A DNA stretch of 5,392 nt, taken from a virus (lineage: Duplodnaviria > Heunggongvirae > Uroviricota > Caudoviricetes). The stretch lies in IMG/VR virus record IMGVR_UViG_2724679140_000006; one strand, written 5' to 3'. The notes below the pieces were generated by a model, which had not been told where the DNA came from, did not search any database, and was given only the letters and a program-made list of their open reading frames with translations. Shown in pieces: positions 1,787 to 5,392 of the stretch. Within the stretch, counting starts at the first letter, position 1, and each line of letters begins with the position of its first letter. A program made the position numbers and the translations under genes.

Positions 1787-1861
<75 letters not shown>

Positions 1862-1864
1862 ATA

Positions 1865-1940
<76 letters not shown>

Positions 1941-1942
1941 AC

Positions 1943-2019
1943 TGGACCGCCACCGAGGACTCGAACCTCGTACGCTCAACTTAGAAGGTTGATGCTCTTT
2001 CCAGGTGAGCTAGTGACGA
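1943..2019 (-). tRNA. tRNA-Arg (anticodon UCU)
   Basis: Reverse complement is TCGTCACTAGCTCACCTGGAAAGAGCATCAACCTTCTAAGTTGAGCGTACGAGGTTCGAGTCCTCGGTGGCGGTCCA. Anticodon loop CTTCTAA as in argU-type tRNAs, T-loop TTCGAGT, encoded CCA. Acceptor stem has two G-U wobbles including U1-G72. Confidence 0.75.
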
Positions 2020-2020
2020 C

Positions 2021-2096
2021 AGGTGGCCCTTGCTGGATTTGAACCAGCGACCTGGCGATTATGAGTCGCTCGCTCTCACCACTGAGCTAAAGGGCC
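2021..2096 (-). tRNA. tRNA with CAU anticodon, ileX/ileZ-like (probably tRNA-Ile2; tRNA-Met not excluded)
   Basis: Reverse complement is GGCCCTTTAGCTCAGTGGTGAGAGCGAGCGACTCATAATCGCCAGGTCGCTGGTTCAAATCCAGCAAGGGCCACC. Strong resemblance to E. coli ileX as recalled. Anticodon loop CTCATAA. Only CC of the 3' CCA is encoded; the next base is T. Confidence 0.75.
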
Positions 2097-2214: not shown

Positions 2215-2240
2215 GCAAAAAACCCGCTCAATGGCGGGTT
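2215..2240 (-). terminator. Intrinsic terminator downstream of the ORF6N-like gene
   Basis: Minus-strand hairpin AACCCGCC-ATTGA-GCGGGTT followed by TTTTTTG. Confidence 0.6.
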
Positions 2241-2335
2241 CTGGTAAAGTTCATGCGCTTGGTTCGCCTCGCGATACAGCTTTGCGAAGCGTACCGGAAT
2301 TGAAGCAGTTTATGTGCAAAAATGCAAGAACTTTT

Positions 2336-2893
2336 TTAAAGCTGCATCAGCCTTTCCAGCAGTTTATCTCTGCGAACAACAAACCAACCATTGGCTCTCG
2401 CCAGTTCCAGCCATGACTCAAGGGAAATAACAATATCATCATCCCGTAACTGAATTGTGGAAACAGTGACACCGCCTCTCTGATAACAGAGAACTCGCGT
2501 GTCGTAACTTTTCTGGCATGAAACTGGCGTTGACGGATCCTTTTGACTGAAATAGCAGTCTTCCAGTTTTTCGAACACATCCCACGCCTGATCGGTTTCG
2601 AGTATTTTGGCGTGGCGGGCTGCTCCGCGTTCTGTCCAGAGTATGAGCGAGCGGGCTTTGGGAGAGATGGGATTTTGTGAGTTACTTAAAGTAACCCGCA
2701 AATTTTTCAACTCATCACCAACAACCTTGAAAAAGTGTTTACCCTCAACAAAACGCTCGGAATTACGGGTGTAATTTACTTTGATGTTGTTGATCTCGGT
2801 ACAGTAAAGCTGTGCCAGTAACTCGGTAGTGATAACGGGAATTTGGTTGTGTGTAATTGGGGAAAGAGTTTCGACAGAAATCTGAGTGGCCAT
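2336..2893 (-). CDS. ORF6N / phage antirepressor-like domain protein, 185 aa
   Basis: Start MATQISV at 2893 with GGAG 8 nt upstream; the listed upstream Met has no RBS. N-terminal ~110 aa (NQIPVITTELLAQLY...FVEGKHFFKV.GDEL...LILWTERGAARHAKIL) resembles the ORF6N/KilA-N-type DNA-binding domain of phage antirepressors as recalled. C-terminal ~70 aa is unassigned. Confidence 0.6.
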   Translation of the reverse strand: MATQISVETLSPITHNQIPVITTELLAQLYCTEINNIKVNYTRNSERFVEGKHFFKVVGDELKNLRVTLSNSQNPISPKARSLILWTERGAARHAKILETDQAWDVFEKLEDCYFSQKDPSTPVSCQKSYDTRVLCYQRGGVTVSTIQLRDDDIVISLESWLELARANGWFVVRRDKLLERLMQL

Positions 2894-3057
2894 AACGATA
2901 ACTCCGTACATTTGGACATTATCGCCACCGTCAGGTGCTAATCATCGTGGTGGCGAACTGTGCGGGGTTAGCACTACCGAGTACGGAAACCGGCGAGCCT
3001 TTCGGCTCCCCCACACAGCCCGCCATAAATCGCGAATGTGACTGTGCAAACGATATG

Positions 3058-3079
3058 AAAAAAAGACGCGGGCGCGTCT
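3058..3079 (-). terminator. Intrinsic terminator about 60 nt downstream of the pR'-like promoter (tR'-like)
   Basis: Minus-strand hairpin AGACGC-GCCC-GCGTCT followed by seven T residues. Confidence 0.6.
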
Positions 3080-3141
3080 CATATCGCTCCGTAAACATCC
3101 GGGGTGCTAATCCCGACGCCAGATTTTGCTGGCGCGTGAGG

Positions 3142-3171
3142 AATATAGCCCCGGATAACAGATTGAGTCAA
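3142..3171 (-). promoter_or_regulatory. pR'-like late promoter overlapping the Q stop codon (TTGACT, 18-nt spacer, TATATT)
   Basis: Minus-strand -35 TTGACT (plus 3166-3171, overlapping the TGA stop of the upstream ORF) and -10 TATATT (plus 3142-3147). Promoter immediately 3' of Q followed by a terminator is the classic lambdoid pR'/tR' layout. Confidence 0.5.
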
Positions 3172-3722
3172 CAGATGGTTTTTAGATCCCCGGAAGAGAA
3201 TGCATCACGCATCGGTAGATAGAGCATATATTCAGCAAGATTTAGCCATACATCTACCCGACTGCAGCACGTCCGGAAACACCACTCAGGGTGTGAATCA
3301 TTCAGCAATTCAGCCATTTTTCGCTTAGTCATCCCCCGCCCTTCATATCGTTGCCGGAGGATACAAATCAATCCTGGATGCTCTGCCAGCACCTCACTTA
3401 TGACTCGATCAATACATAACGCCTCTGCATCAGTACAATGCGCCAGCCAGCTCTTTTGCTTGCCGTTGATCATCTCTCGCAAAAACGCTTCCAGCTCAGC
3501 TTTCTCTATTCCCGCTTTTTTCATTCTGCGCAAGGCTTCATTAATGGCTGTTTTCGTCAGTTTTATGGATGTCAACAACTGATTGAACATATTCCCTGAC
3601 CTGCCACCGCCAATATACGACCAGCGCCCCCACATACGTAGTTTTCCCTGAATCCAGACACTTTCCAGCGTGGTGAGGCGAAGGTGTTCTCCGCTTTTTC
3701 CTGTATTCGTTGGGTAAATCAT
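3168..3722 (-). CDS. Putative late-gene antiterminator Q-like protein, 184 aa
   Basis: ATG at 3722 overlaps the TGA of the upstream gene (ATGA, translational coupling). Position is that of Q in lambdoid nin-Q modules and it sits directly before the pR'/tR'-like elements. It has a W-G-x-W motif (RMWGRWS) and Cys clusters. Family assignment is by context and weak recalled similarity. Confidence 0.55.
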   Translation of the reverse strand: MIYPTNTGKSGEHLRLTTLESVWIQGKLRMWGRWSYIGGGRSGNMFNQLLTSIKLTKTAINEALRRMKKAGIEKAELEAFLREMINGKQKSWLAHCTDAEALCIDRVISEVLAEHPGLICILRQRYEGRGMTKRKMAELLNDSHPEWCFRTCCSRVDVWLNLAEYMLYLPMRDAFSSGDLKTIC

Positions 3723-4009: not shown

Positions 4010-4608
4010 TACGCAAACTCCAGTAGTTGTGCGGCCACATTTTCAACTTCCTCCTGAGAGGAGAATTTACGGAACAGAATCCAGTTCCACAGCACATTCA
4101 GTACAGATTTATAAACCTGCTGAAACTCGACTTCGTCCATATTCGCAAAAGCGATGGATTTTGCCCGACGCCCACGGCTACCGTCCGGATAAATATGCTC
4201 GGTGTAAAATCCGGCCTGAATGGTTACCCACTCGCGGAAAGCCTCAAACGACTTTAGCAACGCCGTATCCCGGGTTCTACGAGTCGCAACGGTGTTAAGG
4301 TATTGCTCTGCGGCATCACTCAGGGCTGGCGTGTGTTCCCGACCAACTGATTCGCACAGGTAATCAACGAAACCGGACACCAGTTTTCGTTCGCGAGGCG
4401 TGATAGCCCCACCGACCGGAGTCCAGTAATCGAATCCCAGTTGCAGGAGTTTGAAAAAACGCTTGTGGAATGCGTAGTTACGCACACGCTTAAAGTCTGC
4501 GTGTATCCACTCGCCTATTTTTATTTGATGCAAAAAATCGCAACTCTCCGGCGTCGCCGGGAGAAGTAATCCGGAAGAGGTTTGTTTGACCAGTTGTATA
4601 TGCGCCAT
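4009..4608 (-). CDS. Phage nin-region protein, DUF1367-like, 199 aa
   Basis: The ORF track starts at a TTG at 4620. The first ATG (MAHIQLVKQ, 4608) has GGAG 6 nt upstream and is the more likely start. Stop overlaps the ybcO-like start. DUF1367 assignment is from recalled prophage synteny, not a computed match. Confidence 0.65.
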   Translation of the reverse strand: MAHIQLVKQTSSGLLLPATPESCDFLHQIKIGEWIHADFKRVRNYAFHKRFFKLLQLGFDYWTPVGGAITPRERKLVSGFVDYLCESVGREHTPALSDAAEQYLNTVATRRTRDTALLKSFEAFREWVTIQAGFYTEHIYPDGSRGRRAKSIAFANMDEVEFQQVYKSVLNVLWNWILFRKFSSQEEVENVAAQLLEFA

Positions 4609-4667
4609 TGCTGTCTCCAATGGCGCTGTAGGTTGCCAGTTGTTCAGGCTGGCTTATGAATTATAAC

Positions 4668-4844
4668 TCATTCGCGAACCACCTTGAAACCGAGCCTTTC
4701 AAGGTATTCAATGAATGCCTCGATAGATAAAATTACATGATCATCAGGGATTAACGTTGTGTAGACAACTTTCCCATTCTCAACGCGCACAGCATAGAGG
4801 CCATTTTCACTAAAAATTTTACGCAGTTCTTCGATGTTCATCAT
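4668..4844 (-). CDS. Small hypothetical protein, 58 aa
   Basis: ATGATG start at 4844/4841 with GGAAGGA 5 nt upstream; TGA stop at 4668. Below the 60-aa cutoff of the ORF track. Product MMNIEELRKIFSENGLYAVRVENGKVVYTTLIPDDHVILSIEAFIEYLERLGFKVVRE is acidic and soluble-looking, with no family recognised. A possible TTGAAG-18-TAGAAT promoter lies at 4923-4952. Confidence 0.5.
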   Translation of the reverse strand: MMNIEELRKIFSENGLYAVRVENGKVVYTTLIPDDHVILSIEAFIEYLERLGFKVVRE

Positions 4845-4960
4845 CAGAGTCCTTCCGGATAATTCGCACTCCCCTTCAGGGGACCATCCCTCTTATCCCT
4901 GCGCGCTACTTAAGTATTTTTGATTCTATTCCGGCACCGTCCAAAACTTCAAATGCGTTG

Positions 4961-4992
4961 AAAATAAAAACAAAAACCCGCCGAAGCGGGTT
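4961..4992 (-). terminator. Intrinsic terminator of the hok transcript
   Basis: Minus-strand hairpin AACCCGC-TTCG-GCGGGTT followed by TTTTTGTTTTTATTTT. A second hairpin (GGCGAGGG-ATTAC-CCCTCGCC, 5032-5052) in the 3' UTR is consistent with the fold-back element of hok mRNAs. Confidence 0.6.
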
Positions 4993-5059
4993 AAGTGCGG
5001 GTGCGTTGAGGATGCCTGACACATCAGAGGTGGCGAGGGATTACCCCTCGCCTGGTCTC

Positions 5060-5215
5060 TTACTCCTCAGGTTCGTAAACTGTGAAGACAGCGACCTCCG
5101 TCTGGCCGGTTCGGATTCGTACCTCGCAGAGGTCTTTCCTCGTTACCAGTGCCGTCACTATGACGGTTAAACAGATGACGATCAGGGCGATTAACATCGC
5201 CTTTTGCTGCTTCAT
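5060..5215 (-). CDS. hok: Hok/Gef family type I toxin, 51 aa, HokD/RelF-like
   Basis: MKQQKAMLIALIVICLTVIVTALVTRKDLCEVRIRTGQTEVAVFTVYEPEE is near-identical to HokD/RelF as recalled. ATG at 5215 with AGGAG about 9 nt upstream; TAA stop at 5060. The ORF track shows an in-frame 19-codon upstream extension from an ATG at 5272, which may be a mok-like frame. Confidence 0.85.
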   Translation of the reverse strand: MKQQKAMLIALIVICLTVIVTALVTRKDLCEVRIRTGQTEVAVFTVYEPEE

Positions 5216-5280
5216 AGCCTGCTTCTCCTTGCCTTTCGGCACGTAAGAGGCTAACCTACATTTGTGAGACATAGATTGGG

Positions 5281-5338
5281 CCTCAGATTAATGTTAAGCG
5301 TCTTGCAGGACGCGTAATGTTAACTGGGGCTTTTCTCT
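5281..5338 (+). ncRNA. Possible Sok-like antisense RNA 3' end, or a leader structure of hok mRNA
   Basis: Plus-strand compound hairpin: outer CCTCAG/CTGGGG, imperfect arms containing TAATGTTAA twice (5288-5296 and 5315-5323), inner GCGTC-TTGCAG-GACGC (5298-5313), followed by CTTTTCTCT. It is antisense to the region upstream of hok. No convincing promoter found; boundaries and strand are uncertain. Confidence 0.25.
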
Positions 5339-5392
5339 ATCTGCCTTTTGGTGATCATGCCTGAGGCAGATAGCCTCAAGCACCCATTATGA

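Follow-up and report, generated by a model that had tools for sequence, protein, structure and literature searches.

An IsrK-family small RNA and a C4-type anti-repressor cassette probably inserted between a Q-like gene and its late-leader unit in an Escherichia coli prophage

A promoter and an intrinsic terminator bracketing a short RNA directly downstream of a phage antiterminator gene raise the question of whether that RNA is a late leader, to be extended into the late genes by the antiterminator, or the product of another system. We address this question for positions 3171 to 3058 (minus strand) of a 5,392-nucleotide (nt) stretch of DNA, IMG/VR virus record IMGVR_UViG_2724679140_000006, hereafter the window, which is a 100% match to a lambdoid (Rac-like) prophage of Escherichia coli strain IGC_EcoliInv_1.1 (NZ_CP054665.1; locus L001). 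The original prediction interpreted this segment as a Q/pR′/tR′ module of the lambda type, in which the product of the upstream Q-like gene would act at the promoter (pR′) and carry transcription through the terminator (tR′). Our analysis makes it highly probable instead that the segment comprises an IsrK-family small RNA gene and its promoter, and that it heads a mobile anti-repressor cassette of the P1 immI/c4 type (approximately 3171-2338) whose insertion has separated the Q-like gene from its own late unit at 2329-2217.

The predicted architecture of the segment is largely borne out. The promoter TTGACT-18-TATATT reported to overlap the stop codon of the Q-like gene is found at 3171-3142 on the minus strand, with the TGA stop of that gene (3170-3168) inside the -35 hexamer. 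The Rfam isrK model begins (position 1) at the start that had been placed near 3135, with the -10 TATATT lying 6 nt ahead of it, and the intrinsic terminator at 3079-3058 would end an RNA of 77 nt, against an estimate of about 75. Over this RNA the isrK family (RF01394) matches with 74.4 bits (gathering score 50; E = 2e-16) across model positions 1-77 of 77, and the overlapping c4-a1b1 match (RF03163) at 3148-3096 scores 49.8 bits (gathering score 46.7; E = 7e-12), barely over threshold, but it recurs in four other loci (L002, L003, L004 and L214). Further downstream, a C4 RNA (RF01695) matches over its full length with 74.8 bits (gathering score 45), in a fold that exposes the sites termed a′ and b′. 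All three matches thus exceed their gathering scores in canonical order and are followed by an ORF6N-domain anti-repressor gene whose start, as called by PGAP, is window position 2893, and whose product matches the PHROG 2379 anti-repressor family (E = 6e-90) and is 55% identical over its full length to AnrP of the Salmonella prophage Gifsy-1. The RefSeq annotation of NZ_CP054665.1 lists no noncoding RNA between the DUF1133 and ORF6N genes, the interval in which the three Rfam families match. The isrK locus has been described in Gifsy-1 (Padalon-Brauch 2008, PMC2330248; Hershko-Shalev 2016, PMC4825925), and the reference Gifsy-1 genome yields the same Rfam matches as the window cassette, in the same order. 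Coordinates of all features are collected in Table 1.

The unit stands above chance because of its homology to Rfam families and the covariation described below, not because of promoter or fold statistics. The window contains 10 promoter-like sites, against 9.0 ± 2.7 in shuffled sequences, and four of them reach the 10/12 consensus score, so that the promoter match alone is not significant; likewise, the fold energy of the 80-nt RNA is ordinary (z = -1.6). The 256-nt read-through RNA folds with z = -5.3. Across genomes, the same promoter is kept in more than 100 loci, occurring in E. coli, Salmonella, Shiga toxin (Stx) phage PA28 and Gifsy-1 independently of the upstream gene; 13 of the 15-mer promoter-pattern matches in IMG/VR were chance matches in unrelated DNA and were dropped before counting. 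Promoter activity has been demonstrated for the Gifsy-1 homologue only (PMC4825925).

The spacer of this promoter shows a feature of its own, an invariant ATCCGGGGC (the 3155-3148 part in the window) that is unchanged in more than 100 cassettes and whose first 8 bases are the exact reverse complement of IsrK nt 33-40 (CCCCGGAU; window 3103-3096). Promoter spacers usually drift, and the invariant ATCCGGGGC may be an operator. Inspection of the IsrK promoter by eye revealed no LexA box (CTGT...CTGT, with no CAG half-site).

The connection between the short RNA and the genes behind it emerges from base pairing. In the window, b1 pairs with b′ at 7 of 7 positions and a1 with a′ over 6-7 nt; RNAduplex assigns -22.5 kcal/mol to the duplex of IsrK with C4 and -27.9 kcal/mol to that of the anti-repressor 5′ untranslated region (UTR) with C4. 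Because b1 equals b2, and a1 and a2 are both complementary to C4 sites, IsrK is a copy, or mimic, of the C4 target. The hairpin-1 loop CAAAAU was also considered as the a1 site and rejected, as its match to C4 is a weak 5-bp one and the a1 that covaries is the linker UACGGAG.

Covariation was surveyed in 64 unique cassettes, which carry 12 b1 alleles. Each allele has its exact reverse complement in the C4 RNA of the same cassette, and for most of them the UTR repeats the allele. Pairing between cognate partners is predicted to be stronger by about 7 kcal/mol than pairing across alleles, both for IsrK with C4 (-26.7 against -20.1 kcal/mol; Mann-Whitney p = 1e-37) and for the UTR with C4 (-26.8 against -19.5 kcal/mol; p = 1e-30), these p values being computed on related sequences that are not independent samples. 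Among the alleles, UUGGCGU/ACGCCAA/UUGGCGU occurs in the 92%-identical E. coli/Shigella locus L004 and in Stx phage PA28; UUGGUCU and UUUGCAC occupy two cassettes within one Salmonella prophage, and UUGGAAC is found in a further Salmonella locus. In Gifsy-1, the compensatory mutations published as the pairs G28/C162 and G31/C159 fall precisely on b1 (nt 26-32) and b′ (nt 158-164).

Two observations on cassette makeup stand beside this survey. The prophage of Salmonella enterica CP191473 (L008) carries two cassettes, at 1290-1476 and 4588-4768, which differ in specificity allele (UUUGCAC and UUGGUCU); one of them is in the nin region and the other after the DUF1133 gene. Three chimeric cassettes on IMG/VR contigs (L041, L159 and L212) have a leader b2 mismatched to their b1 and b′, as in L041, where b1 UUGGCGU and b′ ACGCCAA are accompanied by b2 UUGGAAC; judged by these sites, they look like recombinants that would be expected to escape or alter C4 control.

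Cassettes of this kind, together with the several pseudogenes of the host prophage, raise the possibility that the window cassette has decayed to a relic without function, in a cryptic prophage, and that its RNA, if made, is inert; some related cassettes are chimeric or disrupted by insertion sequences (L004, L041, L159 and L212). We consider this extremely improbable, given that the promoter, both hairpins, terminator, C4 RNA, matched b1/b′/b2 and a1/a′/a2 sites, Shine-Dalgarno sequence and full-length anti-repressor open reading frame (ORF) are all intact. Moreover, compared with L004, its nearest relative, the window has a different b allele, and the change is coordinated over all three sites, which implies selection on pairing.

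These elements suggest the following mechanism for the cassette. Most transcription from the IsrK promoter would end at the 3079-3058 terminator and release the 77-nt RNA, as shown for Gifsy-1, and the fraction that reads through would yield a long RNA containing both the C4 antisense RNA and the anti-repressor mRNA. The anti-repressor leader would be bound at b2 and a2 by sites b′ and a′ of C4, and because a2 covers the Shine-Dalgarno sequence, translation would be blocked. The b1 and a1 sites of IsrK would occupy C4 in cis or, on the free short RNA, compete for it in trans, and an excess of IsrK would free the ribosome site so that anti-repressor is made. The anti-repressor would then inactivate the prophage repressor and turn on the early operon, including the Q-like gene, and Q would act at the downstream unit. 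Both the covariation presented here and the compensatory mutants published for Gifsy-1 show the pairing scheme; its consequences for repressor and early operon would follow by homology.

The experimental work on Gifsy-1 traces the same course. There, the 77-nt IsrK ends at a Rho-independent terminator, with partial read-through producing an isrK-orf45-anrP mRNA (PMC2330248; PMC4825925), and the IsrK promoter drives anrP transcription (PMC4825925). A stable processed RNA, STnc1160, covers orf45, processing being reported for Salmonella only (PMC4825925). IsrK supplied in trans opens the mRNA and increases AnrP translation about 140-fold, and AnrP raises antQ mRNA and transcription of the antQ operon (PMC4825925). 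In Gifsy-1 the 45-codon orf45 is translationally coupled to anrP through an AUGA overlap (PMC4825925). The counterpart of orf45 in the window (3026-2931, minus strand) has 31 codons and lies almost wholly within the C4 RNA. Across cassettes this small ORF ranges from 8 to 240 codons, with AUGA coupling in the Gifsy-1 type only, so the conserved entity is the RNA and not the peptide. The window ORF being uncoupled, the coupling step of Gifsy-1 cannot work alike here, and control would more likely be exerted by C4 directly masking the ribosome site of the anti-repressor.

What, then, is the relation of this cassette to the Q-like gene in front of it? The original prediction was right in regarding that gene as Q-like. 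Its DUF1133 product has an additional weak Pfam match to Phage_antitermQ and matches PHROG 753 (anti-termination protein Q-like), and a profile of 16 DUF1133 family sequences matches the Q21 structures 6P18/6JNX (E = 2.4e-5), which makes the gene upstream of the IsrK unit a credible Q on sequence grounds. The AntQ protein of Gifsy-1 was considered as a DUF1133 member and rejected, since the primer sequence in S4 Table of the Gifsy-1 study and Pfam assign it to the Q82-like family PF06323. Belonging to another Q family, Gifsy-1 provides an independent second test case.

In the model originally proposed, TTGACT-18-TATATT is pR′, the 77-nt RNA is a constitutive leader resembling lambda 6S that ends at tR′, and Q loads through the 5′ hairpin region and lets RNA polymerase pass this and the later terminators into the late genes. 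Parts of this description stand: the promoter occupies the classical position, abutting a Q-like gene, the RNA, like lambda 6S, is short and ends at a terminator, and all late genes lie downstream on the same strand. IsrK has been discussed in print as the product of an antitermination-regulated promoter (PMC7547250). The CAAAAT at +8 to +13 of the RNA resembles a -10 element, and in each of the four Q families behind which the cassette occurs, its -35 (TTGAC) encloses the Q stop codon. In Gifsy-1, the long transcript increased about 8-fold when IsrK was supplied in trans, an effect that AntQ could account for (PMC4825925).

It is the assignment of this promoter and terminator as the pair modified by Q that the comparison does not support. 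The identical promoter and leader stand behind Q genes that belong to four Pfam families unrelated to one another (PF06576, PF06323, PF06530 and PF03589), and also behind NinE, Lar/DUF551 and other non-Q genes; in Stx phage PA28 the cassette lies in the nin region, 2.5 kb upstream of the phage's Q gene. Q proteins of different families are known to need DNA sites of their own. In the IsrK promoter no element tracks the Q family, and the 9 variable nt of its spacer are not associated with Q type, whereas the unit that follows the cassette does covary with the Q family. The 5′ hairpin suggested to form part of a Q-utilization site is present at 3135-3116, but it belongs to the c4-a1b1 motif and is kept without a nearby Q gene, and so is not specific to Q. 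Nor does the 3079-3058 terminator precede late genes, as a tR′ would: the C4 RNA and the anti-repressor gene, an anti-repressor control module, come next on its 3′ side, and the tRNA and lysis genes follow only after a second promoter-terminator unit. Cassette-free DUF1133 genes carry that other unit directly behind them, and the window retains it at 2329-2217. Finally, a Gifsy-1 mutant with the IsrK promoter (PisrK) deleted still gives plaque-forming phage if AnrP is supplied (PMC4825925, S5B Fig), and PisrK is therefore not an essential late promoter in Gifsy-1. The comparative evidence, as far as sequences can tell, argues against IsrK as the product of an antitermination-regulated late promoter, and we regard the model as unlikely for this segment. 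It fits 2329-2217 better.

The unit at 2329-2217 lies about 840 bases downstream of the IsrK promoter and terminator. Its predicted RNA is approximately 76 nt long (fold energy -25.8 kcal/mol) and has no match to any Rfam family. The set of 25 DUF1133 loci, from at least 12 genera, contains isrK after the DUF1133 gene in E. coli/Shigella and Salmonella only. About 20 loci, the remainder, carry a conserved unit directly at the stop codon, once per locus. Its consensus begins with a TTGCAA-type -35, a 17-nt spacer and an extended -10 TGnTT(C/G/A)AAT; after 5 nt, TAnGCT coincides with the predicted start, and a leader of 50-100 nt runs to a strong terminator. TTG, TG, TT-AAT and T-A-GCT are invariant in the alignment. 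Window positions 2329-2217 are 84%, 80% and 79% identical to the sequence following the stop codon in three cassette-free DUF1133 loci (L007, L010 and L013, respectively). In Rac-SA53 (L031), the sequence after the DUF1133 gene is different and did not align with the unit.

Where the cassette is present, the unit on its 3′ side depends on the Q gene on its 5′ side. The AB-type unit follows the cassette in 34 of the 37 loci with DUF1133 upstream and the IsrJ unit in 27 of the 28 with a Q82-like AntQ upstream; neither was found after the 28 cassettes in non-Q contexts. The lambda-Q-type and QuuD-type cassette loci (L115 and L184) are too short to show the sequence 3′ of the anti-repressor, and L151 displays another short promoter-terminator unit there. 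A different kind of interruption is seen in Pantoea osteomyelitidis (L016), where a hok/sok locus (4555-5160; Rfam sok, 129 bits) separates the DUF1133 stop from the conserved unit and represents a second kind of insertion at the junction of Q and late unit.

Co-inheritance with a Q family, a -10-like element at the start, a strong terminator, and tRNAs and lysis genes next in order are thus combined at 2329-2217, which most likely makes it the better pR′/tR′ candidate for the Q-like protein. Additional minus-strand hairpins had been proposed as terminators of an operon requiring antitermination. Those near 2215 (-13.1 kcal/mol) and at 1435-1416 (-14.3 kcal/mol) are strong and that at 1687-1666 is moderate, whereas the ones near 1744 (-5.1 kcal/mol) and 1221 (-7.8 kcal/mol) are weak, so that the proposal holds for part of them; the hairpin near 2215 is the terminator of the 2329-2217 unit. 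Overall, the window has 10 terminator-like sites against 5.1 ± 2.6 expected, with 8 of the 10 on the minus strand.

Gifsy-1 repeats this arrangement with a different Q and a different unit. The reference Gifsy-1 genome reads AntQ (PF06323), cassette, TTGCAA-17-TATATT and IsrJ, followed by a tRNA, isrI, gogA and holin; in Gifsy-1 locus L214 (NC_010392, 2202-2308), Rfam isrJ matches with 100 bits just behind that promoter, the promoter abuts the AnrP stop, and IsrJ heads the tRNA/lysis region. In the cassette-free sister prophages of Salmonella (L036, L037 and L045), the IsrJ unit overlaps the end of the Q82-like AntQ-type gene. Membership of the window unit in the IsrJ family itself was considered and rejected, as 2329-2217 shows no Rfam isrJ match even at E <= 10, nor does Salmonella locus L033; the unit is a counterpart of IsrJ in position only. 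From its placement, IsrJ looks like the 6S-type late-leader RNA of Gifsy-1 and related Salmonella prophages.

We lean, with limited assurance, toward a wider reading of these data. The counterparts of lambda 6S would be not IsrK but the approximately 76-nt RNA at 2292-2217 here and the virulence-associated IsrJ in Gifsy-1, and the cassette would be a mobile module that has landed repeatedly at the exact junction between Q and late promoter (behind four unrelated Q families, with the Q stop always within the cassette's own -35). Its specificity types, at least 12 and orthogonal, would give co-resident prophages each a private induction switch, and its placement would wire read-through of the early operon into anti-repressor production, forming a commitment loop.

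The insertion reading has several points to contend with. The CAAAAT at +8 to +13 has A at position 2 and T at position 6, as a -10 element does, so a sigma-dependent pause, and with it some Q loading, is possible at the IsrK promoter. No -10-like sequence is present at +1 to +7, and CAAAAT is the hairpin-1 loop kept in all cassettes. Random insertion would not account for the constant junction between Q stop and -35; recombination between -35 hexamers through the TTGA(C) that they share would do so, and a functional reason is also possible. The window ORF that corresponds to orf45 stops 37 nt before the anti-repressor AUG, with no AUGA coupling, and the Q-like gene and Gifsy-1 AntQ differ in family (PF06576 and PF06323). 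We also infer promoter strength, terminator read-through fraction and C4 processing for the window.

Some of these points could be accommodated if both units responded to Q, the cassette promoter having been co-opted as a second, upstream Q-loading site, such that more anti-repressor mRNA and late read-on would together form a positive feedback loop. Besides the constant junction in four Q families and the -10-like CAAAAT in the leader, AntQ is reported to act broadly on host terminators and not at one specific site only, and read-through transcripts from PisrK reach IsrJ in Gifsy-1 (PMC4825925). The promoter, however, has no Q-family-specific sequence, the same promoter serves nin-region copies far from any Q site, and the constant junction is also explicable by the recombination just mentioned. 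We judge this arrangement improbable, slightly more so than the late-leader model for 3171-3058, and retain the insertion of an IsrK-headed cassette as the preferred reading.

Table 1. Features of the cassette, the flanking Q-like gene and the downstream unit in the window (position 1 is the first letter of the stretch).
Feature	Positions	Strand	Remarks
Q-like antiterminator gene, 184 aa, DUF1133 (PF06576)	3168..3722	minus	Pfam DUF1133 E = 4.6e-105
IsrK promoter	3142..3171	minus	-35 TTGACT 3171-3166, 18-nt spacer, -10 TATATT 3147-3142; consensus scan 10/12
IsrK-family small RNA, 77 nt (predicted)	3059..3135	minus	Rfam RF01394 isrK
Hairpin 1, GCGCCAG-CAAAAU-CUGGCGU	3135-3116	minus	loop CAAAAU
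Hairpin 2	3115-3100	minus	b1 loop UUAGCAC at 3110-3104
a1 site, UACGGAG	3093-3087	minus	single-stranded linker of IsrK
IsrK terminator	stem 3079-3063, U7 3064-3058	minus	7-bp G+C-rich stem; hairpin -9.7 kcal/mol
C4-type antisense RNA	2946..3030	minus	Rfam RF01695; counterpart of Gifsy-1 STnc1160 ('orf45' RNA)
a′ loop, UCCGUAC	2987-2981	minus	C4 RNA
b′ site, GUGCUAA	2974-2968	minus	C4 RNA; exact reverse complement of b1 and b2
C4 target sites in anti-repressor 5′ UTR	2902..2941	minus	read from sequence and covariation
b2, UUAGCAC	2941-2935	minus	anti-repressor leader
a2, GUACGGAG	2909-2902	minus	overlaps Shine-Dalgarno GGAG 2905-2902, 8 nt 5′ of AUG at 2893
ORF6N anti-repressor gene, 185 aa, AnrP homologue	2336..2893	minus	Pfam ORF6N E = 1.8e-20
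DUF1133-linked promoter-leader-terminator unit	2217..2329	minus	directly 3′ of anti-repressor stop, 5′ of tRNAs
Promoter of the unit	-35 TTGCAT 2329-2324; -10 TTCAAT 2304-2299	minus	17-nt spacer with TG 2307-2306
-10-like TACGCT	2293-2288	minus	predicted +1 about 2292
Terminator of the unit	stem 2242-2223, U6 2222-2217	minus	preceded by leader hairpin; 9-bp stem, -13.1 kcal/mol
Four tRNA genes	1787..2096	minus	ARAGORN, Rfam, PGAP; head of late region, 3′ of pR′-like unit

The surrounding genes are those of a lambdoid prophage. On the minus strand, the window reads hok/sok, DUF1367, YbcO/DUF1364, the DUF1133 gene, the ORF6N gene, four tRNAs and a TolA-C-like ORF; past its end, holin, lysozyme, Rz and terminase genes follow, so that the series from tRNAs through lysis and terminase genes shares the strand of the genes upstream. 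The tRNA at 2022-2096 (minus strand) is tRNA-Met (CAT) according to ARAGORN and tRNA-Ile in the RefSeq annotation; it probably reads as Ile after lysidine modification of the CAT anticodon, as in the tRNA clusters of Stx phages. The hok/sok type I toxin-antitoxin locus at 5060-5385 (minus strand) is intact (Hok/Gef ORF 5272-5060; Rfam sok, 121 bits). Rfam STnc100 matches twice on the minus strand, at 929-1115 (86 bits) and 21-220 (105 bits), and these two copies, about 900 nt from each other, flank the TolA-C-terminal-like ORF at 390-818. STnc100 is also found directly 3′ of stxB in Stx phage PA28 (L002, 782-987, 208 bits), and these elements may mark a slot for cargo genes. A record deposited as 'Actinobacillus phage vB_Apl-pPE4' (PP818812.1, L003) is 93.6% identical to the window prophage over 1451 nt, with gene order in common, and its host label looks doubtful.

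For annotation, the prophage carries IsrK-like and C4-like RNAs and a probable late-leader RNA, none of which is listed in the RefSeq record. The switch appears intact: a small RNA that mimics its mRNA target would sequester an antisense repressor and release an anti-repressor, providing an induction route independent of the SOS response. As an entity, the locus is a new E. coli addition, with a distinct specificity allele, to an already known kind of system. Three elements of the analysis may be new, if modestly so: the insertion of the cassette at the Q/pR′ junction in several Q families, the view of IsrJ and the DUF1133-linked RNA as positional equivalents of lambda 6S, and the existence of at least 12 orthogonal cassette alleles. 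IsrJ is a small RNA reported to affect Salmonella invasion, and the 6S-like reading gives it a testable origin. The twelve coordinated alleles constitute a natural set of orthogonal RNA-RNA pairs. The comparative result also corrects the printed reading of IsrK (PMC7547250), pointing to IsrJ and its DUF1133-linked counterpart as the 6S-like RNAs instead.

Compared with known systems, the locus is closest in layout to the Gifsy-1 IsrK/STnc1160(orf45)/AnrP locus, with which it shares a Q-like gene, a promoter with the stop codon in its -35, a 77-nt IsrK that has two 5′ hairpins and ends in a Rho-independent terminator, a C4-type RNA, an ORF6N anti-repressor, and a second short promoter-terminator unit followed by tRNA and lysis genes; the register of IsrK-C4 pairing is that of the published compensatory mutants. 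It differs from Gifsy-1 in its Q (DUF1133/PF06576 instead of the Q82-like PF06323), its b allele (UUAGCAC instead of UUGGCGU) and a-sites (UACGGAG instead of UCACCG), its 31-codon small ORF uncoupled from the anti-repressor start, the unit after the cassette, an uncurated DUF1133-linked leader in place of IsrJ, and its host, E. coli.

In phage lambda, and in the Stx phage RNA StxS (PMC7547250), a short terminated RNA likewise starts from a promoter just 3′ of the Q gene, with a similar geometry of -10, 6 nt and start. Unlike IsrK, whose promoter has no Q-family-specific element, the 6S RNA is about 190 nt long and has a -10-like AACGAT at +1 to +6. The pause function of this lambda element is established. 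Lambda pR′ has TAAATT, then AACGAT six bases on, and it is the 2329-2217 unit whose geometry resembles it: the succession of a -10, 5 nt and an invariant -10-like TAnGCT occurs at 2304-2288 in the window and not at 3147-3135. An overlap of the lambda Q stop with the pR′ -35 was considered and rejected, the stop lying 44 nt upstream.

The seqA-CI RNA-seqC arrangement of phage P4 also has decoy and target sites flanking a processed antisense RNA. P4 CI terminates transcription of replication genes; the target in the window, by contrast, is the ribosome site of an anti-repressor. Hershko-Shalev et al. have called IsrK a structural homologue of P4 seqA (PMC4825925).

The immI operon of P1 and P7 (a1 b1 - c4 - a2 b2 - icd - ant) has a single promoter and, upstream, decoys that copy the target sites, and the window matches it in these respects; the antisense RNA would likewise be cut from the same transcript, and the target sites lie at a ribosome site 5′ of the anti-repressor. 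An icd/orf45-like small ORF coupled to ant was looked for in the window cassette and not found. In P1/P7 heteroimmunity, a few loop bases that change together set specificity, and in the window, where RF01695 and RF03163 both score above their gathering thresholds, specificity is likewise set by few co-changing loop bases. The window departs from P1 in that its a1/b1 segment has an intrinsic terminator of its own, and is predicted to be released also as a free 77-nt RNA, in that a2 overlaps the Shine-Dalgarno sequence of the anti-repressor itself and not that of an icd-like gene, and in that the element is a lambdoid prophage whose anti-repressor is an ORF6N protein.

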